Shown here piece by piece: positions 2,000 to 53,120 of a stretch of 61,374 nucleotides of DNA. Location of the stretch: positions 1-61,374 of the IMG/VR virus record IMGVR_UViG_3300049893_001396. The stretch is one strand, 5' to 3'. The DNA is from a virus. Lineage: Duplodnaviria; Caudoviricetes. Numbering within the stretch: position 1 is the stretch's first letter; each line of letters begins with the position of its first letter. Made by a program: the position numbers and the translations under genes. The notes below the pieces were generated by a model. The model searched no databases, was not told the origin of the DNA, and saw only the letters and a list, made by a program, of their open reading frames with translations.

Positions 2000-2074
2000 G
2001 GGCTAGTGGCCAACTGGAAAGGCACTTGGTTTTCATCCAAGTGAGTGTGGGTTCAAATCCCACCTAGCCTACCA
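2000..2074 (+). tRNA. tRNA-Glu(UUC)
   Basis: Acceptor GGGCTAG/CTAGCCT, D-arm GCC/GGC, anticodon stem CTTGG/CCAAG with loop TT-TTC-AT, T-arm GTGGG-TTCAAAT-CCCAC, encoded CCA; extended -10 TGTTATAAT upstream. Confidence 0.88.
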
Positions 2075-3563: not shown

Positions 3564-3907
3564 TTATGAAACTCCCATCTATCGCATTTATCGGCTATTG
3601 TCATTTTTGGGCAATGCTTCACAGAGTAAGCGCCACAATTTCCACAGCACTTCATCGATTCTATCTTCTCGAGAAGCACTTTATTCTCACGAAACAATTT
3701 ATCATTTTCTATGTTTAATTGTTCCATGTTTACGTTACCATTGCACATTTTAAGCCTCATTTCCATTATTTTAGAATCAAGCCATTCTTTTAGCTCAGCG
3801 GATACCTTTTCGCACGTTAGCTCCACCCCATCACGATCTGACATTGCGTAGAACGGGAATAAATATGCGGCCATTTCTTGTTCATTGTATTCGGAAGTTT
3901 CACTCAT
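3551..3907 (-). CDS. Hypothetical protein with C-terminal Cys cluster (KCCGNC)
   Basis: Coupled to upstream gene; KCCGNC domain shared with 53966-54193. Confidence 0.6.
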   Translation of the reverse strand: MSETSEYNEQEMAAYLFPFYAMSDRDGVELTCEKVSAELKEWLDSKIMEMRLKMCNGNVNMEQLNIENDKLFRENKVLLEKIESMKCCGNCGAYSVKHCPKMTIADKCDRWEFHKCEN

Positions 3908-4254
3908 TCCCCGTCCTCCAGCTCTGGAATTTCCCTCCAAAAATCAGCCCTACAGTTTTCAGGCAAATCCCCATTAATAAAATATCCATTTTCCAAATGC
4001 ATTGCGATATACACGTCATCATTTATTTTGACCTCATAATATTTGTCAGTTTCTGGCAACCGCTCCTTGACCGGAATCCACCGGAGTTTATCGCGGAGCT
4101 CGGAGAGTTGTTTAGCCAGTTTTTCGTATTCATCGAATGTAATCCAATCTCCTGATTTACATTCGACAAGCCCGCATTCCGTACATTCAACTTCATCACC
4201 GCACGTTGGACATTCTGTTGTTCCGTCACTGAATACAAACCGTTTAACCATCAC
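3904..4254 (-). CDS. DUF551-like protein with N-terminal Zn ribbon
   Basis: CPTC..CTEC; WIPVKERLPE...FWREIPE. Confidence 0.7.
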   Translation of the reverse strand: MMVKRFVFSDGTTECPTCGDEVECTECGLVECKSGDWITFDEYEKLAKQLSELRDKLRWIPVKERLPETDKYYEVKINDDVYIAMHLENGYFINGDLPENCRADFWREIPELEDGE

Positions 4255-4532
4255 GCACCGCCTTTCATATTAAAAAATTCTGATTCAACCAATGCATTAT
4301 ATTCTGTTTTTAATTCCTCTAGTTCGAGCTCCACCCGTTTTATGTTTTTATTCAATACCAATACTCGTTTTTTTGTTTGCCTCCGCGCCCACGCAAGTGG
4401 ATTTTTCCATGGTTTTTCTTTTCCTCCGTACCATGTGCCTACAATGTACCCGTTTACAGAAACAGACCAAACGCAGTAGTCGTCCTCAGCATTTACGCAT
4501 CTTGGCTCCCTATGTAATTTAAATGACATCAC
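4251..4532 (-). CDS. Hypothetical protein
   Basis: ORF bounded by junction motifs. Confidence 0.65.
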   Translation of the reverse strand: MMSFKLHREPRCVNAEDDYCVWSVSVNGYIVGTWYGGKEKPWKNPLAWARRQTKKRVLVLNKNIKRVELELEELKTEYNALVESEFFNMKGGA

Positions 4533-4586
4533 GCACCACCTTTTCTATACACACGACATAACATGTCGCTCAACAATCCATAATTC

Positions 4587-4874
4587 CTATACGCACCCCA
4601 AATCATAGCGACCTTCATTATCATCAATTTCGTCAGCATCATCCGAGGATTTCTGCATTTGATATGCGTTGAGTTCATCCCGTAATTTATCAATCCGATC
4701 CCGTAAGAAGATGATTTCGCGCCTCTGAAACTCCATTTGCATAACATGCGAATCCGGCACGTCAATCCGGCGCTCGATTAGATCAACGATCTTTTTGGCC
4801 TTTTCTGAGTTGTCGTCATCTAGGTCGCGTACTAAGTCAAATATGTCAGTCTGCAATTCATCCCAGTCCATCAC
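4587..4874 (-). CDS. Acidic hypothetical protein
   Basis: Starts in junction motif; coiled-coil-like. Confidence 0.6.
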   Translation of the reverse strand: MMDWDELQTDIFDLVRDLDDDNSEKAKKIVDLIERRIDVPDSHVMQMEFQRREIIFLRDRIDKLRDELNAYQMQKSSDDADEIDDNEGRYDLGCV

Positions 4875-5155
4875 GCACCGCCCTCTACTTTTTCAACGAA
4901 AAAACTTGTGTAATATTCAAGTTCGACATTAAATTTACCTATAAAATCACCATCTGCGCCGTATAACATCACAATGTAAGAGCCAGGCGCTACTAGGACA
5001 CCATCGAAATTTCTTTCTTTACATACAGCCTGTACAATATCATCGTGATCAGTTTCTGCTGATTCAAATTCATCTAGGTAATCTATGGCCTCTGTACGAA
5101 TCAAAATTTCAATTTCATCGCCGTCATTCAGAATTTCATAGTAGTATTTCATCAC
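4871..5155 (-). CDS. Acidic hypothetical protein
   Basis: Bounded by junction motifs. Confidence 0.65.
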   Translation of the reverse strand: MMKYYYEILNDGDEIEILIRTEAIDYLDEFESAETDHDDIVQAVCKERNFDGVLVAPGSYIVMLYGADGDFIGKFNVELEYYTSFFVEKVEGGA

Positions 5156-10220: not shown

Positions 10221-11108
10221 TTAGTAGATGGAATTCGGATCGACAATCACGTCAGCGGCTTCGACCACAACGGGTTCCGGAGTGTCCATTGGTGAGGTGA
10301 CTTGGGCTTGCATGAACTTCGGTGCTTCGATCTGAACGGTCTGGCTTTGGTAGATCGGATCGAGTTTGAATTCGCGGAACACATCGGCTGATTCTTGGTA
10401 TGGCGCTTCGAGAGCGGCACTGAAGTTTGCGCCGACTTGGTTAGCTTCCATAATTTCCGTCGACTTAATGGAGTCCCACACAGGCCAGTAGCCTTCTTTC
10501 TCCACTCCGTTATCCTTATAAGTACCTCGATGGATGCGAGTGCAGGTTTCAAACTCAGCGAAGAATGGTCGAGCGGTAGTTCCGAAGCGTTCCAGCAATA
10601 CTTGCTCAACCCGCTGGATATTCCGGATTGACTCGTTCATCGTCTTTTTCATCGCTTCATTGCTGATTGACAAGCTGAGATTGTATTCTGTAACTTCCAT
10701 AACTTTTCCGGCCATCAGGTCTTCCATATCAGACCGGAGCACTACCACCATATCAAAGAACTCTGAAGCGGTAGGGCGTACCCACTTATCATCCGCACCT
10801 TTTGTGAAGAAGACTTCGTGCTCCATAACTGGGGTACCGTCAGACCAAGCATTCGGCCGTACTCCCGGGGTAGTGATATAGGTGTATTTCTCAAGCGTCA
10901 TATCTTGTCGAAACATCTTAAAGGAGTGAGCGCATCGGAGAATAAAGAACTTCAGAGGTTCTCCTACGTTTGCAATTACTTTACTTTCATCAGTACTTAG
11001 TACAACAGTACCGGCGGGTAGCCCAGTTCGAAGGGCCGCAGTCCCTGCAAGCATCTTCAAAAAAGCCACAGTCTTAACGGTTGGAGCGATATTTCCAAAA
11101 AGTGACAT
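10221..11108 (-). CDS. Hypothetical replication protein, possibly phage SSB
   Basis: Position in replication module; acidic tail ending in an aromatic residue; AAGGAG RBS. Confidence 0.5.
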   Translation of the reverse strand: MSLFGNIAPTVKTVAFLKMLAGTAALRTGLPAGTVVLSTDESKVIANVGEPLKFFILRCAHSFKMFRQDMTLEKYTYITTPGVRPNAWSDGTPVMEHEVFFTKGADDKWVRPTASEFFDMVVVLRSDMEDLMAGKVMEVTEYNLSLSISNEAMKKTMNESIRNIQRVEQVLLERFGTTARPFFAEFETCTRIHRGTYKDNGVEKEGYWPVWDSIKSTEIMEANQVGANFSAALEAPYQESADVFREFKLDPIYQSQTVQIEAPKFMQAQVTSPMDTPEPVVVEAADVIVDPNSIY

Positions 11109-11124
11109 ATTATTTTTCTCCTTA

Positions 11125-11550
11125 TTATTTGGTTACTGATAGTGCAGAATATTCAGTTACGCGGATGCCGCATTCCTCGACAAATTGTCCGAAGAAGTCG
11201 GGATCATTCCGAAAAGCGCTTGGGAAAGATTGTGCGGAAACTGTGACTAATCCTTCATAGGGTGTCCCGATAAGTTGTTCAACAAGCTGGAGCTTATTCT
11301 CAACTGTCACACTCTCCTTGCGGAGGATCTTCAACCCACCGTAGGTCGTGCGTACGCCATCAAGTCCGGGAGTGTTTACTAGGAAATCAAGGATTTCTTT
11401 TTCGAGAGCTTTCTTCGCATCCTCAACTTCTTTCAACTGGGACTTCAGCTCGAGAAGGAGGGCATGCTTCTCGTGAATATTCTCCAGTGTAATTTCGTTG
11501 GTTGTTTGGGGTTGTTGCGGCTTTAAATCGAAGATTGATTCGGTTGTCAT
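11125..11550 (-). CDS. Coiled-coil phage protein (Gam/gp157-like architecture)
   Basis: GGAGG RBS; N-terminal coiled coil then beta segment. Confidence 0.5.
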   Translation of the reverse strand: MTTESIFDLKPQQPQTTNEITLENIHEKHALLLELKSQLKEVEDAKKALEKEILDFLVNTPGLDGVRTTYGGLKILRKESVTVENKLQLVEQLIGTPYEGLVTVSAQSFPSAFRNDPDFFGQFVEECGIRVTEYSALSVTK

Positions 11551-11760
11551 AGTGACCTCCATCTAAAATAGGTTTATCGAGTAACGCCTCGATAGTGCGT
11601 AATTCTTCGCGGATAAGCTCCGCACGGGAATTTAACTTTCTGACTACATTCCGAGTTAGTGCTTCAAATGTCGCCAGTCTCTCATAGTTCAAGGTTCTCA
11701 CCTCCCCACTTAATCCAGTATACACCATCTTTTAATTATAACAAATCGATTTTATTTAAT

Positions 11761-13260
11761 CTAACTGTCAACCCAGAATCTTGTATCGGTGAGTCGGTTC
11801 TGTATATCCAGCTTTTCCTGAAGTGCCTTGGATATGATCGTATCGATCGAACTCTGAAACATAAGCTCAATGTACGTGATCTTCGCGTGTCGCTCGGATC
11901 CGACCCGATGGCACCGGTCATTTGCCTGCAACCAGTCCTCAAGGTTGTAGTTCTTCGAGAACCATATCGCATATGACGCCTCTACCAAGTTTATGCCGAT
12001 CCCGGCTGATGCCGGATTCGCGATGATCACCCGGCACGTTGGATCTGTTCTGAACTTGGTCGCCTCGGCCTGCTTGTCCTTCGTATCCCCGAAGATAATG
12101 GCGGGATTATACGGCTTCAGGGCTTCGATCAATTGGAAGATATTGTTTCGGTACACCGCCCACACAATTACCTTCGTAGTCGAGCATAAGTCTTCAAGCA
12201 GTTCCGTCAGGGCGTTCAGCTTCGGGTTCGTTTTGAACCGTTTCTCTTCACCCGTATCGGTCTTATAGAATCCAGACGACACTTGATTTAACCGAAGGAT
12301 CTTAGACGCTGCCTGATCGGCGACAACGGTATCTCCTTCCAGATATGCGATGAAATCCTGCTTCAGCTGCTTATACATCTTGGCTTGGTCTTCGGACATC
12401 TCGCAGTACTGGTGCATAAACACCTTCTCCGGAAGGTCGAGGCAGTCTTCCTTTTTAAGGGTCGTACTTACTGTCGCCACTCTCTCCCGGAACGCCGGTT
12501 CTAGTGCCTTGATCAGCACCCAATCCGGGAAGTACTTACCGCCACACATCCGCTTTGATGCGTTGATGTCGCACATCCACTGTCTTCGGAAGGTCATTTC
12601 GTTAGTTCCGAATGTTAGCCCACCATCCAGAAATAGGATCTGATTGAATATGTCCTCAGCTCCGTTAGGCATTGGAGTCCCGGTCAGTGCCAAGCGGTAC
12701 ATCGACATCGGGCCCAGCTGGAGCAGTGACTGCGTCCGACCCGCTTTCGACGACTTGATCTTATGAGATTCATCGAGGATGATAATCTCCGGCGGATTCT
12801 GCCTCAGATAATCGTGCATATATGACATCTCAATGATCCAGCGCTTCGTCCGATCCACGTAGATGTTCGGCCTACCTTCTACCGCGTCCATCGCCTTACC
12901 TCCAGCACCCTTTCGGATCTTATAACTGAGCTTGTCGTAATTAATAACGATGATCGACTCATTCGGTATTTTCTGCAAACCACGCTCAACCTGCTGCCGG
13001 GTGCCGTCGACTACGTGAACTCGACTCGCAAGGGATGAGTGCTTCTCGAACTCTTCGAGCCAGTTATACTGTACAACCTTCGGGCATACGATCAGAACCC
13101 GCATCGGCCTCCCGTGCTTGTACATCTTCATCCGGATCCAGTCGATCGCGAACTTCGTCTTACCCGTACCCATTTCCCAGAACTCCGCCCAATACGGCTT
13201 GTCGGAGTGTTCTTTCAGGAAATGGAGCTGGTGGGCGAGGGGTTTCGTTTTGAAAATCAT
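11761..13260 (-). CDS. SNF2-family DEAH helicase
   Basis: EMGTGKT, LDESH, LTGTP, GIGINL, QANDRCHRVG. Confidence 0.93.
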   Translation of the reverse strand: MIFKTKPLAHQLHFLKEHSDKPYWAEFWEMGTGKTKFAIDWIRMKMYKHGRPMRVLIVCPKVVQYNWLEEFEKHSSLASRVHVVDGTRQQVERGLQKIPNESIIVINYDKLSYKIRKGAGGKAMDAVEGRPNIYVDRTKRWIIEMSYMHDYLRQNPPEIIILDESHKIKSSKAGRTQSLLQLGPMSMYRLALTGTPMPNGAEDIFNQILFLDGGLTFGTNEMTFRRQWMCDINASKRMCGGKYFPDWVLIKALEPAFRERVATVSTTLKKEDCLDLPEKVFMHQYCEMSEDQAKMYKQLKQDFIAYLEGDTVVADQAASKILRLNQVSSGFYKTDTGEEKRFKTNPKLNALTELLEDLCSTTKVIVWAVYRNNIFQLIEALKPYNPAIIFGDTKDKQAEATKFRTDPTCRVIIANPASAGIGINLVEASYAIWFSKNYNLEDWLQANDRCHRVGSERHAKITYIELMFQSSIDTIISKALQEKLDIQNRLTDTRFWVDS

Positions 13261-13302
13261 TGCATGCTCACCTCGACCAACTGCCCCATAACCACATACC
13301 GC

Positions 13303-13641
13303 TCAAATGATCCCATACGTTTTTTCGTCGATAAGGGCACAACGAAGTAGTTCGTCTTTGAGTCCTCGCCAAGAGTCCGCAACAAAGGCAAAAGCGCCAC
13401 TTTGCCGCAGTTTCTGGATTCGATAATCTTGCAATGGTCGGGGAGACTCCCCAACTCGCTTGACCTCGATTCCGATGAAATGTCCGGAGACATGCCCGAC
13501 AATGTCGGTAACTCCACTTCGATTCGCTCCCTCAATTTTCGTCCAAGCTGAGCGTGGAATTCGCTCAAGTCCTCGGAGGATTTCAGTTTGGACCTTAGAC
13601 TCTTTTTTACGATACTGCTTGTAATCGAATTCTTCACCCAT
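13303..13641 (-). CDS. VRR-NUC domain endonuclease
   Basis: GVTDIVG..FIGIEVKR...PRPLQ...LRQSGAFAFVA. Confidence 0.85.
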   Translation of the reverse strand: MGEEFDYKQYRKKESKVQTEILRGLERIPRSAWTKIEGANRSGVTDIVGHVSGHFIGIEVKRVGESPRPLQDYRIQKLRQSGAFAFVADSWRGLKDELLRCALIDEKTYGII

Positions 13642-13698
13642 ACAAACCCCCTCGCCGCAGCGTAACCAATCATAAATAAAAACAACCCATCCATAAAA

Positions 13699-15690
13699 CT
13701 ACCCATTCCAAGGCTCCTTATCCGCCCAATTTGTCCGAATAATCTCCGGATCCACTGTCAACTTAATTCCGAAGATCCCCATACTATCTGACATGATATC
13801 ACAGACTTGTGGGATCAGTTCGGACACTCTATTCTCGTCTACCTGTACGATCAGTTCGTCGTGCACCATCATCAGAATCTCGACATCGGGCAGGGTGTCA
13901 TATATCCGAACCATCACCGCTTTGATGTAGTCTGCACACGACCCTTGGATGTATGCATTCACACCCTTGTACCCCTGATCTGTGGCCAGACGTCTTCGAC
14001 GTCCGAACGGGTTCACGATATAGCCGAACCTGCCGACCTCATTGGACATCCGAGTCATGAACTTCTTCGCATCAGGGAAGGTCCGGAAGTAGTCCTCCTT
14101 GATCACATTGCCTTCGGAAGTATCTACACCCATAACCGCCGCGATCTTCTTAATACCCGCCCCGTACAGTGTCATTAGGTTAAAGACCTTCGACTTCTTA
14201 CGCGCCTTTTTAGGATCCGGATCGTTCCGAAGCGTTGAGACCTTGTCCACAACTAGCTGATAGAAATCGGTGTCGTTCTCATTAATCTCACGCACTACCT
14301 CTGCCATACCAGCAGAAGCCGCAAACACCCGGAACTCCTGCTGCTTGAAGTCGATCGCAAACATCACCTTACCGGGATCTGGTACAATCGCACGGCGTAT
14401 CGTCTTATCGTCCTTCGGAAGGTTCTGTAGGTTCGGTTCAGAAGATGACGTGCGACCAGTGCGCGCCGAGCATTGGTTGATGTTTGCGTGAATTCTCCCG
14501 TCTTTACGAGCAAAACCCAGCATCGGCTGAATGTACGTTCCGAGCAACTTCGACACCTTACGATACTCTAGGATCGTCCGGATCAGTGCGATAGCTGGAT
14601 TCGCCTGTACCTCCGCCAAATAGCCTTCGGCAGCCGAAACCTCAATCCAGCTCAACTCCTCGTCCTTAGCCTCAACAAGCGCCTTCAGAGTCTTCTCGTC
14701 CACCTTGTATCCGGTCTTGGTCTCAGGTAGTGTGGCGCCGAGTTCGCGGAGTTTACGGGACAGCTGTTGGGGTGAGTTGATGTTCAAGCCCGGGGCGAGT
14801 TGCTGGATCTGCGAGAGTAGGGCGATCTGCTTGGTCTTGTACTCTTCCTCGACATTATAGAGGTATCCCATGTCCACCCGAAGTCCAGTGCGTTGCATCG
14901 CTCTATACACTCTCATAACCGACATCTCAAGCGAGAATACGGGGAGCAGGTTCTGATCCTTCAGAATAGGGTTCAAGTTCTCCGCCAAGCGGTATGTCAG
15001 AAACGCATCAGCCGCAGCATATTCGCGCATCAGGTCCCACGGTACATCTGCGTAATTCCGGTCAGCCGACTTGATTCGGCGCCGTGCAAACCACTGATCG
15101 ATTCGATCGTTCTTCTTGTGCACAGACAGTAGGGAAGTGATGAAACTCCGCTGTCCTGCTGAGTCGAATTGCATCATCGATATGAGAAATGAATGCTCGA
15201 CTAGCTTATCCTTACACTCCTCCTTAATATCTGAAGCACAAACCATGTCAATGAAGTCCTGAGGGCGTCCGAGAGTGGCGTCGGCAATAACTATCGCCTT
15301 GTAGATATCCTCTTGCGTTATGGGCGGCAGCCGAAACTCCACCTGAGTTGCCAGCTTCTTGGACCTATTCTCGTCCACCAAGTGCGCTGCCACCATCGTA
15401 CAGAAGATAGGCCCAAGCACAAACTGACCAAGCACTTCAAGCATCTGTAAATCGAACTTGGCGTTGTGGAAAATCTTGCAGATGTCTGGATCTTCTAGGA
15501 TGTTCGAGATGTGTGAAACATCCCGGGTGACGATTGTCTTCAAGCCATCAATCGACTCCACATATACGTCACCTTCCGGGATCGTATACTCGACTTTCGC
15601 CGGGTCCCAAGTCATGATGAAACAGAATGGATACGCTCCCAAGAAGGGATTCAACCCAGTTGTTTCTGTATCAATCGCAACGTACCGCAT
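13699..15690 (-). CDS. polA: Family A DNA polymerase with 3'-5' exonuclease (Leu at the 762-equivalent position)
   Basis: DTETTG, FHNAKFD, YAAADA exo motifs; DFKQQEFR, RKKSKVFNLMTLYG, VHDEL polymerase motifs. Confidence 0.96.
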   Translation of the reverse strand: MRYVAIDTETTGLNPFLGAYPFCFIMTWDPAKVEYTIPEGDVYVESIDGLKTIVTRDVSHISNILEDPDICKIFHNAKFDLQMLEVLGQFVLGPIFCTMVAAHLVDENRSKKLATQVEFRLPPITQEDIYKAIVIADATLGRPQDFIDMVCASDIKEECKDKLVEHSFLISMMQFDSAGQRSFITSLLSVHKKNDRIDQWFARRRIKSADRNYADVPWDLMREYAAADAFLTYRLAENLNPILKDQNLLPVFSLEMSVMRVYRAMQRTGLRVDMGYLYNVEEEYKTKQIALLSQIQQLAPGLNINSPQQLSRKLRELGATLPETKTGYKVDEKTLKALVEAKDEELSWIEVSAAEGYLAEVQANPAIALIRTILEYRKVSKLLGTYIQPMLGFARKDGRIHANINQCSARTGRTSSSEPNLQNLPKDDKTIRRAIVPDPGKVMFAIDFKQQEFRVFAASAGMAEVVREINENDTDFYQLVVDKVSTLRNDPDPKKARKKSKVFNLMTLYGAGIKKIAAVMGVDTSEGNVIKEDYFRTFPDAKKFMTRMSNEVGRFGYIVNPFGRRRRLATDQGYKGVNAYIQGSCADYIKAVMVRIYDTLPDVEILMMVHDELIVQVDENRVSELIPQVCDIMSDSMGIFGIKLTVDPEIIRTNWADKEPWNG

Positions 15691-15749
15691 TCGCTTCTCC
15701 TTGTATAATGATGCCCTACCCTATCGTTTAACATCCGATTTTATGCACA

Positions 15750-15765
15750 TGTTTCACGTGAAACC
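15750..15765. promoter_or_regulatory. parS: parS-type palindrome (15/16) inside a 20-bp inverted repeat (15714-15733/15768-15787)
   Basis: TGTTTCACGTGAAACC. Confidence 0.8.
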
Positions 15766-15794
15766 ATTGTTAAAAGACAGGGTAGGGGAGTGTT

Positions 15795-16160
15795 TTACAT
15801 ACCTGTTTTATACGTGTGCTCAGCTATGATTTTCGAACCATCATCCGACCACACAACGAATTTACGCTCGCCAGCCCTACCCTTGCAAATTTCGATTCCA
15901 TTCGACTGAAGGGCTAACTCCAATCCCTTTACAAATACTTTGCATTTCATAATAAGCGCATATTCATCCGGACATTCGAAGATCTGGAAGTGGTTGAACT
16001 GGACTTGCTCCGGCGTCAATGAGCGCTTCAATTCACGGATATTGACGACCAGTAAGTCATGTCGATAATTGCATACAAACCAATCCGCAGTCTTATCCAT
16101 CAGCTTATCTTTGAGCTTCCGCTCTTCACTACTCTTATTCCCCCAATTAAATAGTCCCAT
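15795..16160 (-). CDS. Hypothetical protein
   Basis: RBS GGAGAGGG before MGLFNW. Confidence 0.6.
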   Translation of the reverse strand: MGLFNWGNKSSEERKLKDKLMDKTADWFVCNYRHDLLVVNIRELKRSLTPEQVQFNHFQIFECPDEYALIMKCKVFVKGLELALQSNGIEICKGRAGERKFVVWSDDGSKIIAEHTYKTGM

Positions 16161-16449
16161 CCACCCTCTCCTTATGTATGATAGCCTTCTGAATGTCATC
16201 TGTGATGAACATCCGACGATTCCAAGCGTAGTAGTTCTTCAGATCTTTCATTAGCTCCTTGAACAAGCTATCATCACCCTCAAGGAACCAGTACCCGTAC
16301 TTACCAGCACTCCCAAGAATACGTGTCGAGTACAGCGAGTCGAACGTGTTCGGAATGATCGCGGATAGCGGGAACACATATCCCCGCCTCCCTGAGACCT
16401 TCGCCAACGCTACAGCCTTGTTAAATTCTGGAAACTCCACTACTCCCAT
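16147..16449 (-). CDS. Hypothetical protein
   Basis: Operon position. Confidence 0.6.
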   Translation of the reverse strand: MGVVEFPEFNKAVALAKVSGRRGYVFPLSAIIPNTFDSLYSTRILGSAGKYGYWFLEGDDSLFKELMKDLKNYYAWNRRMFITDDIQKAIIHKERVDGTI

Positions 16450-16565
16450 TTCGCATTATCCTCGTACTTACTCGTTGCCGGACAGTTATTACAGCGGTAT
16501 ACGATCTTTACGTTCTGCCATGTTTCACGTGAAACATCCGTACTCCCACATACCGGGCACTTCAT
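16440..16565 (-). CDS. 41-aa Zn-ribbon microprotein (MKCPVCGSTDVSRETWQNVKIVYRCNNCPATSKYEDNAKWE), absent from the ORF track
   Basis: CxxC...CxxC; fills gap between neighbours; contains parS read as DVSRET. Confidence 0.65.
   Translation of the reverse strand: MKCPVCGSTDVSRETWQNVKIVYRCNNCPATSKYEDNAKWE
16521..16536. promoter_or_regulatory. parS: Perfect parS palindrome
   Basis: TGTTTCACGTGAAACA. Confidence 0.88.
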
Positions 16566-16566
16566 C

Positions 16567-17043
16567 TCAGGCTTCCTCGCTGAACATATGCGCGAAGTGT
16601 GTGTACGCAGCCAGATCAGTGTAACTGTCTCTCTTCGTCGGGTTGTAAGACATTCGGGATAACTTCAACGCAACCATCATCAGAGCAACTTCGCGCTTAT
16701 TCATATCAATCCCGGACAGTAGTTTAAAGATATCTGCAATCTTCTGAAACATCTCCCCGGGGTCGCCATAATCCTTCCGACGATCGCCATTGATCAGCTT
16801 ATCAGCTTCGATCAAGATGTTATCTAATGCCCCTGTTTCACGTGAAACATCTCCCTGTTTTGCTGTTTCTGGATGCGCACAGTCCAAGTGCTTGTACCCA
16901 ATTTCTGGATCGTACGTACTTGCGCCAATTATCGCTTCTTTGCACACTACGCAATGCATATGCGTGTTATAAACCATATTCGCCTCCTGAATCTCTTTCG
17001 CCAAATCATCTACCTTACCATAACTACCAAACAAACTTCCCAT
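16567..17043 (-). CDS. DUF6378-like phage protein with N-terminal Cys/His cluster
   Basis: A..LINGDRRKDYGDP...IA...VALMMVALKLSR...DSYTDLAAY. Confidence 0.75.
   Translation of the reverse strand: MGSLFGSYGKVDDLAKEIQEANMVYNTHMHCVVCKEAIIGASTYDPEIGYKHLDCAHPETAKQGDVSRETGALDNILIEADKLINGDRRKDYGDPGEMFQKIADIFKLLSGIDMNKREVALMMVALKLSRMSYNPTKRDSYTDLAAYTHFAHMFSEEA
16834..16849. promoter_or_regulatory. parS: Perfect parS palindrome within the DUF6378 gene linker
   Basis: TGTTTCACGTGAAACA. Confidence 0.88.
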
Positions 17044-17052
17044 AACTCCTCC

Positions 17053-17937
17053 TTATCCTCCGCAATACTGCTTATCGCAGAAATCACCCCGATACTCGCA
17101 GAACCGGTCCGTGCAACGCTCTGGTTTCACGAACACTTCTTCCCAGCTCCCCGCGTCTGCCGTCTTCGTGATCATCTCCTGAGTGTCTCGGACATATCTG
17201 AAGAACAGGTCTTCCGCTTCCCGCACCATATCCCAGTCGTATTTGAACCAGATCGACTGGCGGAATGTAGGCTTAGTCTGGCCGGGTACGACCATCGCCT
17301 CTGGGAACCAGATGTCCCAGCCGCCGTAGGCAACCTGAATGCCGAACTTGCGCTCGATCATCCACGCCATAGTCAGAAGCTGGAAGCCCTTACCTCCGAA
17401 AGCGCAACCCGGAAGTAGGCTACGGCTACCATCCAGAATCTCCGCCTCGTTGTAGGGCGCTTTGGATGTCTTGTAGTCCCAACACACCCCGGTCCGAGAT
17501 TCTCCGGCGAACACCTTGTCAGATACGACGTCCATCCGCCCACACCATGTGTCTTTGAAGTTGCCAATACTTGGGCAAGGTCCTGAAACGAACTCCTCGA
17601 CAAGCAGTTTTCCGTTCGGCAGTGCCTGCGCCCGGATTGTCGGAAGCTCGTACGCGGCTCTCACCGTGTTCACGTAGGTGTCAATTGCCGACCGGTTCGC
17701 CAAGTCCTTCGACTCCGAAGTGGTCTTCCTGTAAACCTCCACATAATACTCAACAGGGCGGAGCTTCCCCGTCTTGGTGAAGTCCACTGTCTTCACCTCC
17801 TGCACCTTGTGGAACCCCTGACCCGTCGCAAACGAGTCGTTTTTTCCCTCGATGATTCGGCGTAGGATCCTCCTTATGTACCATTTTCTCCAACATTGGA
17901 GCCCGTCCATGTAGGAGGTAAAAGAGTGTACTGTCAT
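17053..17937 (-). CDS. Cas4/RecB-like PD-(D/E)XK exonuclease
   Basis: SFTSY..CWRKWY, GRMDVV, WDYKTS, QL, C-terminal CxxxxCxxxxxxC. Confidence 0.8.
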   Translation of the reverse strand: MTVHSFTSYMDGLQCWRKWYIRRILRRIIEGKNDSFATGQGFHKVQEVKTVDFTKTGKLRPVEYYVEVYRKTTSESKDLANRSAIDTYVNTVRAAYELPTIRAQALPNGKLLVEEFVSGPCPSIGNFKDTWCGRMDVVSDKVFAGESRTGVCWDYKTSKAPYNEAEILDGSRSLLPGCAFGGKGFQLLTMAWMIERKFGIQVAYGGWDIWFPEAMVVPGQTKPTFRQSIWFKYDWDMVREAEDLFFRYVRDTQEMITKTADAGSWEEVFVKPERCTDRFCEYRGDFCDKQYCGG

Positions 17938-18268
17938 TCAATCGCTCTCTTTCTGTCGCCACTTTGACGACGTCAAATAGTTTTTTGATAAGGTTACTTT
18001 CACTTACCTTACCAAATTGTAACCCATGAACTAATTCTACCATATCATTTACCACTTGTCCACACGTTATCTCGCTATCACCCGTCAACTGGATGATGGA
18101 ATCCCGAAGATTAAGTATCTTCACTCCGAGTTTTCCGGAGAAGGTGAGTAGAATAGTTTTCCCGCTGAAGGAATCTTCTTTGATTGAGCGTTTGACCTTC
18201 TCAAGTGCCTTCTTGTGCTGCTTGGATCCGCGCTGAAATCTGCGGAGCTTGTTATCTGTTTTGGGCAT
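17750..18268 (-). CDS. Basic hypothetical protein (3' part overlaps exonuclease gene)
   Basis: AAGGAG RBS. Confidence 0.5.
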   Translation of the reverse strand: MPKTDNKLRRFQRGSKQHKKALEKVKRSIKEDSFSGKTILLTFSGKLGVKILNLRDSIIQLTGDSEITCGQVVNDMVELVHGLQFGKVSESNLIKKLFDVVKVATERERLNDSTLFYLLHGRAPMLEKMVHKEDPTPNHRGKKRLVCDGSGVPQGAGGEDSGLHQDGEAPPC

Positions 18269-18349
18269 AGTGACTCCTTAAAATAGGTGTCCCGTATGCG
18301 GAGACATACGGGACTCGGGAAAGGAAAGGAAGTAAGGTATCCTATATTG

Positions 18350-19390
18350 TCAAATCTGCCATGGTGCTTGCGCTCGTTCTCGCACTGTCACGTACTCTTG
18401 CGGAGTAGGTTCTAGCTCGATCGGAGCCATGAACGGCTGTTCTGTAGCATACACCGGTGCTTCCGGTTCTGCAACCTCCACCCCGTCTGGAGTAGCTGCG
18501 CCACCAAGGAATCTTGCATTGTATGAATCAGCAACCTCCATCACGTCTGGAGTAGTTCCCACTTCGAGTGGGCCGGTGTACGGCTGTTCTGTAGTGTACA
18601 TAGGCTCAGCCACATACACCGGAGCTAGGTACTCTTCGGTTGGTTCGGAAATGGGCTCAGGCGTAACCTCATGGGTTACACTTGTAACCTCATCCGTTAC
18701 ACTCGACTCCGGTGTCCGGACAAGCCCGCTGATCTGCTCCCACGCTTGCGGGTGCTTCTTCTTCATCTGCTCGATCGCCGCAGTCGCACTCAGCCCGCTC
18801 CGCTTCATCAGCTCTTGGATGCCCTTCGCCCAGAACTTCTGGACCTTCCTAATACCCATTGCCGGATCCTGCTCCACCGCGTCACGCTTACGCCGAACAC
18901 TCCCGCCGGTCTTCGACATTGCCGAAATGAGGAAGTGGTGAGCTCGTTCTACGATGGTGCGCCGCCGAACCGTCTGAACATCGACATCAAGTCCAGCCTC
19001 CAACGACGGGATCCAAGAGGGAGGGCAGACCGCCTTTGTGTGGAGCTCCCGAGTGATGGGGAGTTCTACTTTTTTTCCATTCACGATCAGTGCCTTGCTG
19101 GAGTTCTGAAGGGTGATCGTGCCATCTACGTGCTGGTCCCACACATAGTCCGCGATCTTCCGGAAGGACACTGTGAGGTCCCACTCGAAGTAAACGCGGG
19201 TGTAGGGGTAATTCAGATACCCGTTACCCTTCAGTAACGCCCCCTTGGTCGTGCAGAAGCTACCCATCTCTGCTGCGACCACGAGGTGCTTGTCTTCGAA
19301 CTTCCCGCCAGTTAGGAGTTCGACCTTGTCTTTCAGGTAGTTCCAAGTGCTGTTTGTCTGGCGCACACAATGAGAATACGCAGCTTCCAT
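18350..19390 (-). CDS. Hypothetical protein with acidic Pro/Thr-rich internally duplicated C-terminus
   Basis: YTTEQPYTGPLE/YATEQPFMAPIE and TTPDVMEVA/ATPDGVEVA repeats. Confidence 0.7.
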   Translation of the reverse strand: MEAAYSHCVRQTNSTWNYLKDKVELLTGGKFEDKHLVVAAEMGSFCTTKGALLKGNGYLNYPYTRVYFEWDLTVSFRKIADYVWDQHVDGTITLQNSSKALIVNGKKVELPITRELHTKAVCPPSWIPSLEAGLDVDVQTVRRRTIVERAHHFLISAMSKTGGSVRRKRDAVEQDPAMGIRKVQKFWAKGIQELMKRSGLSATAAIEQMKKKHPQAWEQISGLVRTPESSVTDEVTSVTHEVTPEPISEPTEEYLAPVYVAEPMYTTEQPYTGPLEVGTTPDVMEVADSYNARFLGGAATPDGVEVAEPEAPVYATEQPFMAPIELEPTPQEYVTVRERAQAPWQI

Positions 19391-19394
19391 AATA

Positions 19395-22300
19395 TCACAA
19401 CTTTCCTATAGTCTCGTCCAGTGAGCTGTCTTTTAGCCCAATGAACCACTTATTAATATTATCATACAATTTTAACTTTGTCACTACCCCATTACCATCC
19501 AACAAGTGTATCTCACATAGTATGAATTTCCTTGTCTGGTACTCGACAACAGCGATAGGGTAGAACGTATACGCTTGCGGGATGGTGCCTTCGTTGTGTG
19601 CACGCATCAGGGCCAAGTCCATGGCCCGGCGTTGGTCGTCTGAAATGTACATTAGCTTTAGCTCCTATCGTGGATGCACTTATTGTCGATATCTGGAGAC
19701 GCTCCAGAATAGCGCTTGCACTCGTGCCGGGGGTTCCGGTTGTAACCACCTTCACAGTTACCATGACAGGTGATAATATCATTTTTCCAATCCGGGTTTG
19801 ACTGATGTGATGAGTCTTTTATCATGTTTGCCCCCTTATTTCAATTTATTGAAAGAGATTATTATAAGGTCCTCTTTTCGTACGCCTAACTCCTCACATA
19901 TACTATTGGAACATTCCTCAAGAGCCTTCCTTCCCTCTCGATTTATTCGGAAAGTACCGTAGCTTTTTTTAATGCAATTGTTAACTGTAAATTCACAACT
20001 GAAGAAGTATTCGATCATCAGTGTACAGCATCTCCTTATCGATGAAATTTCGCCAGTCCGGCGATCATTGCTACGAACACCAGAAGCTGGAATCCGTATA
20101 CCCCAATACATACCGCGATCACCCCGACCGCGATCAGCTTCAACCATTCTTTCAGCTCGCTCATTTAACGAACCAGAAGAACCCCACACCCCGGACACTG
20201 AAGCGGTGGAACTCGTCCGGGTCCGCGTCATAGTCCTGCGCCCGATCGATCCAGATATGTCCTTCCGGATCTTCTGTGCATCCGATGTAACGCCGATCGA
20301 AGTCGGCCATTCGGTCAATGTATGCCGCCCCTTGTACGAACTTCTGGAAATGTACGGTTTCAGCTGTTTTTCTTACGTTTGCCATTTTATTTGTCCCCCT
20401 TATTTTGAATCGCCCCACACATAGAAAATCTCGTCTCCCCAGCAGTACTCGTCCGCAGGAATAGCCTTCGCGATGGTGGCCTGCTGTTCTTTTGTCGGGG
20501 CTTCCAATACCTTCTGGCACCGTTCGTCCCATTCTTGCGTTAAGAACATACCCATTATGCTATTGATGATCCGGATATCCGTCTCCTTGGATTCTGCAAG
20601 TTCTGCGGGTGACATATTAGCCCCTTTCAATTACCCATACCCCGGGCTTCACTTCTTTGAATTTCCGATCTTGCTTCGGTTCATTTGACTTACTGATCAA
20701 CCGGAGCGCCTTACCAAGTACACTAACCTTCTTCTCTTCCTTCATAAAACCCCCTTTAATTTGGCCCTGACCCGTTCGTGTAGATGAACCACACTAACCA
20801 CATCAGAAGCATAAATACCGCTACTCTAACTATAACACAGAATGCGTCTTTTAATTTATCCATATTATACCCTCACCGAAACCACGCCTTGCGCGGTCTT
20901 TACGGTCTTAACGCCACCCGAGATCTTGCCAGATGCGATGATGAGCTTACGCCCGGACTGGTCTTTCGTTTCAGCGATTGTTTTTGATGTCATCAGATGC
21001 CTCCTATTCAGGTCCCATTGTGAAATTCTCACTGCTCATAAACACCTTGCCGAGCAGAAATCCGGATAGATAAAACACATTACCATACAAGTGATTCTCT
21101 TTTACATCGGTTACGTGCAAGAGATCCACATTGTCTCTGAAGAACTGCTCTGGCACATCGCTGAGCCATAAACTTGATTTAACCTCAGTCATCAAACCTC
21201 ACTCCTTCCGCTGGTTCTGCCACACCTTCCAGAATATTCCCCGGAAGGGTGAGCACGGTTACTACAAGGTCACCGACAATATTGTCAATAACTTCACGCG
21301 CACCCTCGATAAAGCCCATCACTTCACCTCGAACTTTCCTACCTTATTGCCGTTGATGTCATAGATATTCCCATTGAGTTCGTACACTCCGCCGGAGCCG
21401 ATACCGTCTTTAACCCGATCGGCAACTGTTCTCAAACATCTTGAAAGCTCGTGATACTGCTCATCACATAGATCATCCTCAAATGCTACATTCTCCATGT
21501 CAATCTCAAGTGTAAATTTCACGAATTCACCTCCCTCATCTTATAGCAGCCGTTCGGATAATAGTCCGAATGGTCGTGGTTATGTGTATTGAGTAAGATA
21601 TGCTCAATGTCCCCGCAGATGTCGTGTATCACATCTGCCCGGTCGTCGAGGTTGCTTGTGTAAACTTCGATTGTGACGTTGTATGTGGGCATTAGTTAGG
21701 CTCCTTAATCGTGGTATTTGTGATCAATGCACGGTTCCCAGAGTGCCCCGGCTTCTGAAAATTCCATTTCAGTAGTTAGTGTATCGTACTCCACCTGAAT
21801 AGCAGTCCCGGGGATACGTGCAGAAATGAACCGGTGCTCGATACGTCTGAAATCTGATTCACCTGATTCCAAGTAGATTGTGCAGAGCTCTGAAATGTCG
21901 GATCTCTTCTCAGCAAGCTGATAGGCCAACTCCTTGATGAATTCCTCTGGACTCATAAGCCCTCCTGATTCTTTATTGAATACGCCTCAACAAAAGTATT
22001 TGTTATGGCGGGATTAAGTTCACCCTCAATGTCGACTAGGCCCGGCTTTATGTTGGTCAGAAGATTGTCATATACTTTAACCCACACTGTCCTGACATCG
22101 AGTTTAACGGAGATCATCCATTCACTCTTCTTTGAGATGCTATGCCTAGAGCCATTCCACACCCCGCTTAAAAATACTTGGTTTTGATATGCCATCAATT
22201 ACCCTCCATCTCTTTAAACGCATTATAGGCCTCGAATCCTGCCTTCGATATATCACCTAGTGGGAAGCCTCCCCGAACACAGATCTCAATTCCTTGCGCT

Positions 22301-23703: not shown

Positions 23704-23915
23704 GATCTTCTCCTTTTATTTATTTCAGGTCCTCAGTCTGACCTGATATTTTCCCGCATCAAATAGCGGTTTAATCACGCTTGAACGAATACCGAAATGC
23801 CCGAGTGCGGACAGTGGGCGGACGGGGTATTCCGAAGATGTAGCGTGATTAAATCGCTACTTAACTAGGACGTAGCCGAGCTGCTAAACAGTGCCAGCTC
23901 GGCTACGGGCCCATA

Positions 23916-23993
23916 CTAATAATCGCAGTACGGGCAACCTCTCGGGTTGTTGTGGGTACACCCACAATCCCAACATGTTGTAGTGTCGTCCAT
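23916..23993 (-). CDS. 25-aa Zn-finger micropeptide MDDTTTCWDCGCTHNNPRGCPYCDY
   Basis: AAAGGAGGTG RBS; CxxCG...CPxC. Confidence 0.65.
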   Translation of the reverse strand: MDDTTTCWDCGCTHNNPRGCPYCDY

Positions 23994-24002
23994 GTGACAC
24001 CT

Positions 24003-24870
24003 CCTTTCATTTTTGGTATGCAGATACGTGGCTCTGAAATTGGTGCGGGCATCGGTTTATGTGTTCGCCGACTGCGCAGTCAATACAGCGTATCTACACT
24101 TTTTGTTCAACTTGGGAGCTAGTTAACCGTCCCGGGCGCTGATTCGCTAGTTCAGCGTTACCCCCAAGACACTCACACCTAGACCGGTTTGTCCGGCTTT
24201 GTGCTTTTCCACCGATATAAACGTGCACGACATATCAACCCCACCGGGGTCTATTTTTCGGATGGAATTCCACCATCTCTATCGCACCGCCCCCGAACCT
24301 ACCTATATCTATAAGCAGTTTTCGGGCACCGACTGAATGAATGAATTCAGTCGATGTATATCTTCCAAACATGCCCCGGCCCTTGGGTTCAACCTCTGTT
24401 TGACGTTACACAAGGTCACTTTTCAGCTTGCTTGTGTAACCGGGTTTACCGGGTTACATGTTGGGGGTCTTCAGAAGCTGAAATACTAGCTTCCGAAAAC
24501 TAGCACATACCCTTCATCGCGGCATGTGTGAGCCCCTATGACAGGCCATAACACCTGTTTTTAATAACACCCCCAGATACACGCGTGAAGCGTGTATAAC
24601 TAGGGTCGAACCCTGCCAGCGGGAAGCTGGCACGTTATGAGGTCATAACATAGCGTGCGGGGGTGTTACGTGTTGTGAGCTTGAAAAACCTGTTTCAAAT
24701 CGTTCACCGTTTCCACTCTGGAGTTATTCACCCACGGGTGCGGATTTCGATTTATTTTCAGTGGTCATTTATTCCCGCCTTGCCTATCCGCTTTTGGGAT
24801 ATGGTCAGGATGACCGCGCTTCAAGCTCACAATTTTTCAATTTACTTGGGGGCGATTTTCTTACCCCTGT
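24003..24870 (-). ncRNA. Candidate large structured non-coding RNA or leader
   Basis: Many nested stems, no minus-strand ORF of 60 aa or more, consensus promoter immediately upstream. Confidence 0.6.
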
Positions 24871-24876
24871 ACCTTA

Positions 24877-24904
24877 ATTATAACAGATTGATTTCTTTTG
24901 TCAA
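24877..24904 (-). promoter_or_regulatory. Sigma70 promoter, leftward (early)
   Basis: TTGACA-16bp-TATAAT with TG extension; a second TTGACA-17bp-TATTAT at ~24974-25002. Confidence 0.85.
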
Positions 24905-25500
24905 GCGGTAATTTTGTTACCGTCAATCCGTTATTTCAAGGTATGTAGTCAATTTAACCCCGACTACTCTACTATAATAGCAAGTGTACCTATGTTTGTC
25001 AACTATTATTTTTAATTATTTTACAGTTGTATACTATATATTAATAGGGTAATTGAGCGATAGACTAAATATCAATGTTTTTCGATATAATTTTGTCATA
25101 TCATAAACTTTCAATGATTGGGGGTATTGACACCGATATTCCTATATGTTTTTTGGGGATTTATGGTAGATTAGAATGGTTCTAATTTTAGTGTAATTTT
25201 TGTTAATTGCAATTTGGCTATTTTATTAATTAGATTAGTTGGATATAGTAGGCTATTTTTAATTATAGTAACGTAATGTTTTGTATTTTTATTTCTCCGA
25301 TACTTAACTAGAATCAGAGTTTTTCGATACATTTTGGCTTATATTATTTTAGTCATAATTATTTTTCTAGCGTATTCCGGGGTAGGGTGATTTTGCTGTT
25401 ATTGTAAGGAAAAACCGGGTTTACCGATTGTTTGTGATGTTTCGGAAATGTTGCTTGTTTTTTTTGTTCGCTGATTGTACGCGCGAAAGAAAAAGTATTT

Positions 25501-25575
<75 letters not shown>

Positions 25576-26014
25576 TTAGTAATAATATAATATGTAAGAT
25601 TTTAAATTAAAAAGAAAAAAGATAAACAAGATTTCAAGCCCTCTTCGGCTTGAAAATAGCGATACTTCCGATTAAAAACCGTAACACCCAGCAATTATAA
25701 TAGCACAATCACCTATTATATACTCATTCCTATTCCGTTTTTCTTGGGGATACCGATAATATACCAAATATCCTCAATAAACACAATCCACTCAATCCAG
25801 CAAAACCGACACTTGACAAATAACGATTGACAAGTAAAACAAAGTAGCACCCTGTTAAACACCCGTAAAATCAATTTCAAATCAATTTGATACCGTAACA
25901 CTGGTTATACTATATATGGCGTTTGTAGACCCGATAAACTGGCGATACTGTGAAACTTGGTGTTACTGGTTACACGATGTCATTGATTGTGTGACTTGGT
26001 GGTATAATTAACAC

Positions 26015-26043
26015 TTGACAATATACGCGCCTGACGTTATAAT
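26015..26043 (+). promoter_or_regulatory. Perfect sigma70 promoter, rightward
   Basis: TTGACA-17bp-TATAAT. Confidence 0.88.
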
Positions 26044-26070
26044 TAGATTATAAATTAATAGGGAGGTCAT

Positions 26071-26175
26071 ATGTTTGAGAAGTTTTTTGTAGTAGGATTT
26101 ACAATCATGGCAAGCGCCATGTTTGTAGGACTGATTGCCCTATACGTGCAGTCATTGCAGACGCTGGGACTATGA
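26071..26175 (+). CDS. 34-aa single-TM peptide MFEKFFVVGFTIMASAMFVGLIALYVQSLQTLGL
   Basis: GGGAGGT RBS directly downstream of the consensus promoter. Confidence 0.6.
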   Translation: MFEKFFVVGFTIMASAMFVGLIALYVQSLQTLGL

Positions 26176-26410
26176 CGCCCCAGCATTCTGAAGGTTTGTC
26201 GTAATGGGGTGATGAGGTCTAGGTGGAGGTGTCGACGGTGCACCCGGAAATACATGCAGACCCACGAAACACCGGAACACCCAGAAGTACTCCGAAGAAC
26301 ACAGTGGTACTAGCCTCAATAAGTAAATTTAAATCAAGCCATAAATTATACATTCCAGAAGTTAAATAATAGTATAGCTTAATACTTTACATTCATGGTA
26401 TAATGTGTAT

Positions 26411-51368: not shown

Positions 51369-51480
51369 TTTTGATATGCGTTTGATATAGGTTTGCTATA
51401 GTTTAAGCAATTCCAGACCACGGACGGTCTGTTTGCCGGGTGGGGCGCCCTGCCCGAATCAAAGAACATGGAGGTTCTAT

Positions 51481-52302
51481 ATGAGTGGTTTTCAATCAGC
51501 TACACCTGCGGGATATCAAATGGTATCGACTGGATATCCCGGCATGGGTGGATTCGGATTCGGGTCCGGTTTCGGACTTGACGCACTTCTGATCCTGTTA
51601 TTGCTGGGCCCGAATGGATTTGGACGCGGTGGGTACGGCTCACCAGCAGCCAATGCAGTTACGACTGACGTTGTTCTGCAACCGGCATTCCAGTCACTTC
51701 AGCACCAGATCGCGACTCTCGCAGAAAATCAGGCTACCGCTGCGATCACCAATAAAATTGGCGATCAAATGCAGGCTCAGGCTTCACAGGCCGGTTCTAT
51801 CGGCGCGGCTATTGGCGGGCTTCAGGCTTCTATTGAGAATAGCCGCTTCACGGCGCTGGACCAAAATAACAACCTGTATCGCGATATCACGGCCCAGAAT
51901 ACTCAGGCGCTTCTGAACTCTAACCAGCAGACTCAGATCACCAACGGACTGATCACTAATGGGTTCAACCAGAATTATCTGGCCACGCTCACCGGGTTCA
52001 ATGGCGTAGAGAAATCCATTGACGGTTTGTCCCGCGAACAGGCTGAATGTTGCTGCCAAATCAAAGAATCCATCCTGACCAACGCCCAACGTGGTATCGA
52101 TCTTCAGAACCAGATCCAGAAAGAGAATCTGATCAGCCAGCTGAATGACGCCAAGGCACAGATTTCAAATCTGAGCCAGACCAACCAGCTGATCCAAGCC
52201 ATGCAGGCGCAGACTACTACCATCCTGCATCACATGTTTCCTTGGTATGGTAGCTCAAACGGAAACGGCAACGGAAACGGCAACAGCGCAGTCGTCCGTT
52301 AA
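51481..52302 (+). CDS. CCC protein, phage B copy
   Basis: 3 amino-acid changes versus the copy at 84, apart from the extreme C-terminus. Confidence 0.85.
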   Translation: MSGFQSATPAGYQMVSTGYPGMGGFGFGSGFGLDALLILLLLGPNGFGRGGYGSPAANAVTTDVVLQPAFQSLQHQIATLAENQATAAITNKIGDQMQAQASQAGSIGAAIGGLQASIENSRFTALDQNNNLYRDITAQNTQALLNSNQQTQITNGLITNGFNQNYLATLTGFNGVEKSIDGLSREQAECCCQIKESILTNAQRGIDLQNQIQKENLISQLNDAKAQISNLSQTNQLIQAMQAQTTTILHHMFPWYGSSNGNGNGNGNSAVVR

Positions 52303-52401
52303 GTTGAACTGGCTCCAACGATTAGCAAAGCGGGTCTTCCGCATTTGAACCCTACGCGCCCGGTATGTCCCTTCCGGGCGCTCACTTATGAAAGGACTGT
52401 C

Positions 52402-52926
52402 ATGGAAAAGGAATTATTCACACTGATTGAAAAACTGATATCCGACGAACACCGGATGTCTATTGTTGAGGCTGAGCACATGAGCGTATTCCAGTCACGT
52501 GGTCTGCCAGGATTCAAACGTCAGCATCGGTACCTTGCCCGGTGGCGAACTGAGGCGGCTTTAAAGCTCCGGTGTTGGGTCACAGATAAAACAGGCATGC
52601 GGCCATTCGTTTCTGTATCAATCACATCATCGGTGGTGTCAGAATCTGCTCTAGACTGCATCATATCATTAATCGGTGAATACGACACACTTATGAAAAA
52701 TTATGTCGTAGCGGCAAAGATGGCAGGCGATAAAGGCCACGACGACTTACTACAGATACTTGAGTATCAGATTTGTTGGCTGTCAAAGACGATTATGAAA
52801 TACCGGCGCGATTACCAGGAAATTTCAAATGTGAATTCAGATTCCGTTTATATCCAACTCAGAAGCGAATCGCATCATGAGAAGTTTAAAAAAAAGGAAG
52901 CCGATTTCCGCATATGCGCTGAATAA
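52402..52926 (+). CDS. Ferritin-like protein, phage B copy
   Basis: GLPGFKRQHRYL; roughly half of residues shared with 1002-1526. Confidence 0.6.
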   Translation: MEKELFTLIEKLISDEHRMSIVEAEHMSVFQSRGLPGFKRQHRYLARWRTEAALKLRCWVTDKTGMRPFVSVSITSSVVSESALDCIISLIGEYDTLMKNYVVAAKMAGDKGHDDLLQILEYQICWLSKTIMKYRRDYQEISNVNSDSVYIQLRSESHHEKFKKKEADFRICAE

Positions 52927-53050
52927 AAAAAAGGTGCCCGGCCTGGGGAGCCGGGACTTGGGGAGTGATGAAAATAAAAAAAAGGGACTGAGGTTTTTTA
53001 ATAATAGACCCTTTAGGTTGCTTTTGCAATAAAAAAAATGGTATCCTGAA

Positions 53051-53120
53051 TACGTCAGCTGACGGTAAAAAAGAGTACGTTACCGCTTGGGGCTTGGCCG
53101 GTTCAATACCGGCGGCGTGC
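53051..53120 (+). ncRNA. tRNA-like RNA (acceptor + T-arm, no canonical D-arm or CCA)
   Basis: TACGTC/GGCGTG, CGGTAA/TTACCG, GCCGG-TTCAATA-CCGGC; extended -10 TGGTATCCT upstream. Confidence 0.5.

Follow-up and report, generated by a model that had tools for sequence, protein, structure and literature searches.

The 61,374-base contig IMGVR_UViG_3300049893_001396, from a tailed virus of the Caudoviricetes, was analyzed over its whole length (the window), and it carries four copies of parS, the palindromic site of the bacterial partition protein ParB (Spo0J). Three copies lie close together in the replication module of one phage genome (phage A), and the fourth lies in a related phage segment (phage B) at the end of the contig. 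As judged from their sequence, these are real, non-random, host-type parS sites. Our favored reading, held with modest confidence, is that they are orphan host-type parS sites that would load the ParB of the host and thereby have a role in partition or persistence of the phage. We infer both ParB binding and its purpose from sequence identity, taken together with the precedent of Bacillus phage phi29.

The 14-base core GTTTCACGTGAAAC occurs at 15751-15764, 16522-16535, 16835-16848, and 56923-56936 and is the only 14-base palindrome that is repeated in the window. The longer 16-mer TGTTTCACGTGAAACA is perfect at 16521 and 16834, has one mismatch (the last base) at 15750, and has two mismatches (both outer bases) at 56922. 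Compared with the chromosomal parS consensus tGTTNCACGTGAAACa, two sites match at 16/16 positions, one at 15/16, and one at 14/16 with a perfect core. The initial annotation had recognized the repeat as the conserved ParB/Spo0J site, and the sequence is indeed identical to the published chromosomal consensus as given in Table 1 of PMC7022226 and in the methods section of PMC10197239. In that table, B. subtilis has TGTTNCACGTGAAACA, Hyphomonas has the exact 16-mer, and other phyla have close variants, and the methods section of PMC10197239 describes use of the same 16-mer to locate parS in 12 gut bacteria belonging to several phyla.

The claim that four copies of a 14-mer in 61 kb exceed chance was also upheld. 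The core had zero matches in 100 dinucleotide-preserving shuffles of the window. As background controls, we used the DNA around relatives of the terminase (≤42% identity), comprising ∼2.2 Mb in total: the core was absent, even at ≤2 mismatches, from 80 IMG/VR loci (949 kb), and no exact core was present in 79 bacterial loci (1.27 Mb), which held one copy with a single mismatch. The three A sites span 1.1 kb and are clustered above background.

Phages A and B, which the initial annotation treated as separate, are not two records: the window is a single contig, and all of its proteins are recorded on that one contig. Bases 1-985 recur at 51398-52380 with 93% identity, and beyond that there is only patchy homology. 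The assembly appears to make one full circuit of a 51,397-bp phage genome (A) before entering a mosaic relative (B; 51398-61374). Homologues in A were found for 8 of the 22 B open reading frames (ORFs), at 30 to 97% identity, and comparison of A with B bore out the statement that the B site is at a position non-homologous to that of the A cluster.

In the A cluster, parS1 (TGTTTCACGTGAAACC; 15750-15765), which matches the consensus at 15/16 positions with a perfect 14-bp core, is intergenic, with the stop codon of a 134-amino-acid (aa) ORF on one side and the start codon of the DNA polymerase on the other. The two perfect 16-mers, parS2 (16521-16536) and parS3 (16834-16849), are inside ORFs and are both read on the minus strand as DVSRET, just as the initial annotation had noticed. 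parS2 is contained in a 41-aa four-cysteine zinc-ribbon ORF (16440-16565, minus strand) with a weak Lar-family likeness under the curated cutoff. parS3 encodes residues 65-70 of a 158-aa DUF6378 protein (16567-17043, minus strand), in the linker before the Pfam domain (residues 75-151). The remaining genes around the cluster are also on the minus strand: a family A DNA polymerase with a 3′-5′ exonuclease domain (13699-15690), immediately downstream of parS1 as transcribed; the 134-aa ORF (15795-16199) and a 100-aa ORF (16147-16449), both without a family match; and a PD-(D/E)XK (Cas4-like) exonuclease (17053-17937), whose gene is upstream of the site cluster. parS1 is near the center of a 98-nucleotide (nt) imperfect palindrome (15702-15799, minus strand) with arms at 15702-15733 and 15768-15799 (32 nt, 78% complementary).

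The half-sites GTGAAAC/GTTTCAC number 17 in the window, compared with 7.9 expected, and eight of them belong to the four palindromes. Two of the nine others flank the A cluster and two more are ≤40 bases from the B site (56946 and 56960). The flanking pair consists of GTGAAACATCC at 15513-15523 on the plus strand, an 11-mer that recurs at parS2, where it makes up the right half and the flank, and GTTTCAC at 17124-17130 on the minus strand, 275 bases past parS3. Some ParB proteins also bind GTTTCAC half-sites, as described in PMC7022226. Alignment of the four sites with their flanks revealed no extended motif common to them, and no promoter-like match overlaps an A site.

Several lines of evidence suggest that the DNA itself, rather than the encoded peptide, has been under selection. 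The ORFs containing parS2 and parS3 are unrelated and share only 18 bases of DNA, with differing codons on either side, which points to selection on DNA and not on protein. The arginine of DVSRET is encoded by CGT, the joint-rarest of the six arginine codons (94/715), and the single DUF6378 homologue (40% identity) covers only the domain. This fits a DNA motif placed on tolerant stretches of protein and not a conserved peptide.

A further indication comes from the hexamer CACGTG, which occurs three times in phage A, compared with ∼12.7 expected, with all three copies within parS. Counts of ≤3 were obtained in 0/300 first-order Markov simulations of A, the lowest simulated count being 5. Among palindromic hexamers expected at least 7 times in phage A, 5/63 are absent, compared with 15/4015 non-palindromic hexamers with the same expectation; the absent palindromes are AACGTT, TCTAGA, CTGCAG, CTTAAG, and CCTAGG, each with 7 to 15 copies expected. 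Palindrome avoidance of this kind usually marks escape from restriction enzymes and suggests that phage A DNA is unmodified and exposed to several restriction systems. Since only the parS copies of CACGTG survive in A, the sites appear to be kept against restriction-type counterselection. Together, these features are signs that the phage A sites may be maintained by selection.

Genes for partition, lysogeny, and regulation were sought with family profiles from Pfam (E ≤ 0.01; 100 ORFs), NCBIfam (52 ORFs), and PHROGs (60 ORFs). These scans detected no ParA (ParA/CbiA), ParB (ParBc), integrase, recombinase core, or repressor family, and the earlier statement that the phage has neither ParAB nor an integrase therefore holds within the reach of such profile searches. 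No self-contained ParABS cassette, with parA and parB on the same element, emerged from the family scans. The sole recombinase-related Pfam match was a zinc-ribbon likeness of a 42-aa ORF, under the cutoff, and no helix-turn-helix or other regulator family was found by Pfam or NCBIfam in the ORFs scanned. GxRR is a ParB box-II-like motif; a six-frame search for it gave seven matches, none ParB-like in context, of which one is in a called ORF, that of the DUF6378 protein. PDB sequence searches with four neighboring or large unassigned ORFs returned nothing significant. The phi29-like markers DNA_pol_B_2, Podovirus_Gp16, and Phi29_MCP are missing, and DNA_pol_A, Terminase_3, Portal_Mu, and CLP_protease are found instead. 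A 295-aa ORF was considered as a ParB candidate and rejected, being Pam3 gp34-like by ESM Atlas likeness.

The B site (AGTTTCACGTGAAACC; 56922-56937), with its perfect 14-bp core, is in an AT-rich stretch between divergent gene blocks. Two direct half-sites, GTGAAAC, start at 56946 and 56960 (56946-56966, plus strand), just 5′ of the ribosome-binding site of an ORF starting at 56982; ∼0.005 extra half-sites would be expected ≤40 bases from the B site. On the other side, a degenerate palindrome (TATTTCATTTGAAACT; 56894-56909; 12/16) covers the start codon of a minus-strand 115-aa ORF. All of these elements fit in 75 bases between a minus-strand block, which ends in an HNH endonuclease gene, and a plus-strand operon. 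A promoter-like match, GTGAAA-16-CATAAT (56930-56957, plus strand), overlaps the right half of the B site and agrees at 9/12 positions, which is weak evidence of a promoter; the AT-rich region as a whole has 6 promoter-like matches, compared with 2.7 in shuffles. Because the B site is in a promoter-like intergenic region with extra half-sites, a role in gene control, exerted by ParB or by another binder, is kept in consideration. Two more degenerate parS-like 16-mers, both 12/16, are farther along B, CGTTTCACGTGGACGA at 58935-58950 and GTTTTCACGTGAAGGA at 60730-60745. The array adjoins an AT-rich insert (56103-56901; ∼33% G+C) that consists of the HNH endonuclease ORF and the upstream 115-aa ORF and looks like a homing-endonuclease-type insertion.

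The partition or persistence reading leads to the following model. Upon infection, host ParB would bind the three A sites within 1.1 kb of the replication module or, in B, one strong site plus half-sites. ParB would then close to cytidine triphosphate (CTP)-dependent clamps and spread across adjacent phage DNA, and the resulting centromere-like complex would couple the phage genome to the ParA and SMC machinery of the host. The likeliest benefit would be to unintegrated phage DNA, which could be positioned and inherited while cells divide or rest (delayed lysis or a carrier state), much as phi29 relies on Spo0J.

The phi29 precedent invoked by the initial annotation is real according to PMC2731898: phi29 and Nf have host parS and no par genes, with five sites in phi29; capture of phage DNA in the forespore is Spo0J dependent; and Spo0A boxes silence the phage. 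The same account is given in a 2024 preprint. A full-text literature search found no published orphan-parS phage besides phi29 and Nf. Like these two, the present phage is lytic looking, has several host-type parS copies and no partition or integration genes, and would presumably use host ParB. phi29 is a protein-primed podovirus of ∼20 kb; in contrast, this is a 51-kb phage with a family A polymerase, a primase-helicase, and a terminase/portal/ClpP head module. The sites may represent a phi29-type trick in an unrelated lineage with a family A polymerase. Further differences from phi29 are that two sites are inside coding sequence, that the host is not known to sporulate, and that Spo0A boxes are not enriched: TGTCGAA occurs 14 times compared with 10.4 expected, 12/100 shuffles reached 14, and there is no Spo0A box within the promoter region at 23.7 to 26.4 kb. 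With Spo0A boxes at background, the analogy with entrapment in spores received no support.

The sites share with bacterial chromosomal parS/ParB-CTP complexes the identical 16-bp palindrome, clustering, location inside genes, and GTTTCAC half-sites. Many chromosomal parS sites are intragenic and away from promoters, as are two of the three A sites. The difference is that there is no cognate parAB on the replicon and that the replicon is a phage. Plasmid-prophages such as P1 and the extrachromosomal mycobacteriophages come with ParA and ParB genes of their own and with element-specific parS beside these genes. The phage described here would resemble them in having centromere-like repeats serving the inheritance of unintegrated phage DNA, but no par gene was found in the family scans and the site is of the host chromosomal type.

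Several observations weigh against a partition or persistence role. Recognition of the exact 16-mer by the host ParB is an assumption that rests on the wide conservation of the consensus. The best terminase relatives, 42% identical, are without parS; the locus of the one distant polymerase relative found in IMG/VR (30% identical) is also without the site; and conservation of the sites can be compared only between A and B because no close relative was found in the collections searched. In B, CACGTG is not depleted (5 copies in 10 kb, compared with 1.3 expected), so the restriction argument is valid for A only, and the B array appears as operator-like as it is centromere-like. parS1 lies within a long hairpin of unexplained role. 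Finally, a 346-aa ORF received no assignment from the PDB sequence search or the Atlas, and numerous small ORFs match no family and may include one for a very divergent DNA-binding protein.

Alternatively, host ParB could bind and the sites could act as a sink or a switch rather than as a centromere, which we regard as rather unlikely. As a sink, replicating phage copies would titrate ParB from the host origin and disturb segregation, SMC loading, or replication control; as a switch, ParB bound at promoters or close to them would dampen the expression of early phage genes and defer lysis. With three strong sites in every phage copy, the total would be greater than the 1 to ∼20 parS sites that PMC10197239 reports per chromosome, and ParB represses promoters adjoining parS in P. 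aeruginosa, according to PMC5521831 and PMC7022226. The phage sequence is also compatible with control of transcription, in that a promoter-like match overlaps the B site, an operon follows that site, and parS1 is directly upstream of the polymerase gene. However, parS2 and parS3 are inside genes and not at promoters, the A sites lack overlapping promoter-like matches, and neither clustering nor perfect sites are needed for titration. Somewhat less probable again is that the palindrome is an operator bound by a phage-encoded regulator, or by one from the host that is not ParB; its resemblance to parS would then be coincidence or mimicry. The arrangement in B, with the palindrome, the degenerate palindrome over a start codon, and the two half-sites packed together at the junction of divergent blocks well beyond the half-site density expected, is what an operator might look like; parS1 is intergenic, and many ORFs are without an assigned function. 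Two 16/16 matches to a consensus fixed beforehand would nevertheless be unlikely for an unrelated operator, and parS2 and parS3 are intragenic. Nor do candidate regulators emerge: no regulator family, helix-turn-helix or otherwise, was found in the scanned ORFs; the well-conserved proteins common to A and B have no DNA-binding family; and the ORF just beyond the B site, like its weakly similar counterpart in A, begins with a segment that by eye is signal-peptide-like, and hence these two are not regulators.

The sites could also function as nucleic acid structure, either as transcript hairpins affecting processing or stability or as cruciforms at a replication origin within the replication module. 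The 98-nt palindrome centered on parS1 folds as RNA with −38.2 kcal/mol (z = −5.2), 0/200 shuffles folded as stably, and a single gene block has all the A sites on its transcribed strand. Extended arms are missing from the other three sites, however, the 16-mer by itself is only a short AU-rich stem, and a structural role does not require the exact parS sequence four times; we consider this explanation very improbable. Least credible of all is that the sites are neutral passengers, i.e., scraps of a host origin region acquired by recombination, or the product of chance. Mosaicism is general among phage genomes, and module swaps distinguish A from B, but identity between the sites is limited to 16 to 18 bases with no shared flanks, the sites are in frame within phage genes, four copies contrast with none in 100 shuffles, and they contain the sole CACGTG remaining in phage A.

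The relatives that could be found are distant. Among GenBank phages there was no nucleotide match to 13000-19000, and the primase and terminase returned nothing as single queries; a terminase alignment yielded the 80 IMG/VR loci and 79 bacterial loci described above. No polymerase relative of >33% identity was present among the best 120 matches from a collection of 5.8 billion proteins. The nearest relatives of the terminase are from Bacteroidota phages (26 to 32% identity), and those of the polymerase and portal are from actinobacteriophages (∼26% identity); host assignment from the nearest cultured relatives thus gave conflicting signals at 26 to 32% identity. The stretch is contained in one public freshwater sediment metagenome run that may be its source, two further freshwater runs (X2 and X3) contain ∼7% of the sampled words, and no RNA run containing it is listed. 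Logan contigs of X2 and X3, which are from other studies, include short pieces 88 to 99% identical to phage A over 13000-20000, which indicates that phages of this group occur beyond a single sample. A 151-base relative piece over 16471-16621, spanning parS2, has one difference, and another over 16815-16965 has 18; these differences may lie in or outside parS. Many short pieces match parS words only and come from other organisms.

Scanning IMG/VR for the perfect 16-mer gave at least 137 stretches, at least 25 of which have two or more cores. For 19 of these 25 multicore loci, 113 of 144 ORFs (≥90 aa) were scanned, the other 31 being mostly overlapping frames in one locus with 68% G+C (L036) and, for the rest, overlapping frames elsewhere. 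ParB was not found among the 113 ORFs. The loci have clusters of 2 to 5 perfect sites; phi29-type markers were present in 10 of the 19 (7 contigs), and the remainder were of other phage types. The phi29-like loci (L007/L008, L015/L016, L032, L050, L069/L070, L075, and L077), with a type B polymerase, a Gp16 ATPase, and a phi29-type capsid, have pairs or triplets of the 16-mer, often 24 to 34 bases apart, and the phi29 trait therefore appears to be widespread in uncultured relatives. The non-phi29 loci include L052, with a P22-type portal, the 68% G+C locus L036, and L025 and L065 (∼51% G+C), each of which has five perfect 16-mers in <1 kb (2002-2787 and 2002-2927, respectively) adjoining an Sf6-type small terminase gene. 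Comparison of the parS-bearing loci with the present phage gave nothing beyond a distant helicase or SSB match.

A wider proposal, which we advance only tentatively and regard as possible rather than probable, is that virulent phages of unrelated lineages have repeatedly evolved orphan host-type parS as a general strategy, also outside spore formers, for boarding the ParB/ParA/SMC machinery of the host. In the present phage, the sites would then be of enough value to be placed in coding sequence and to be retained as the sole CACGTG copies of a genome otherwise purged of that hexamer. Under this proposal, widespread non-lysogenic persistence (a carrier state or deferred lysis) would depend on the loading of ParB onto phage DNA, and the parS variant carried by a phage could mark its host. 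It is an open question how lytic phages last in hosts that grow slowly or lie dormant, and among cases involving host ParB only phi29 has been worked out; from a clear second lineage it would follow that the trick extends beyond one small Bacillus podovirus. The 1.1-kb fragment is compact and directly testable, and orphan parS combined with survival of an otherwise purged restriction-type palindrome may be of use as a marker in metagenomes.

The phage A genome has three main regions, two of them divergent gene blocks. The replication and recombination block (2443-23703, minus strand) encodes a primase/MCM-type helicase, an SNF2 helicase, the family A polymerase, the PD-(D/E)XK exonuclease, and SSB. 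A 2.7-kb non-coding stretch (23704-26404) separates this early block from the plus-strand structural block, which encodes the terminase, a Mu-type portal, a ClpP-type protease, capsid, and tape measure. The non-coding stretch has a G+C-rich part (23720-24700) and an AT-rich part with 70 T in a row (25503-25572), and it contains perfect TTGACA-17/16-TATAAT promoters in both directions, at 26015-26043 on the plus strand and at 24904-24877 on the minus strand. With a lenient pattern, a Shine-Dalgarno-like motif was found ahead of 48 of 63 genes.

Three smaller features are present in the early part of phage A. A tRNA-Glu gene with anticodon TTC (2000-2074, plus strand) overlaps ORF 1582-2067, a mechanical call that is consequently unlikely to be a gene. 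At 10221-11562, between the primase and the SNF2 helicase, the 295-aa gp34-like ORF is beside a 145-aa ORF with a weak Pfam match (Pam3 gp33/Gam-like), and the two form a conserved phage gene pair whose role is not assigned. At 3904-5155, four small minus-strand ORFs of 93 to 116 aa stand in a row, each with a near-identical ribosome-site context, GAAAGGCGGTGC followed by GTG, and may form a small paralogous family.

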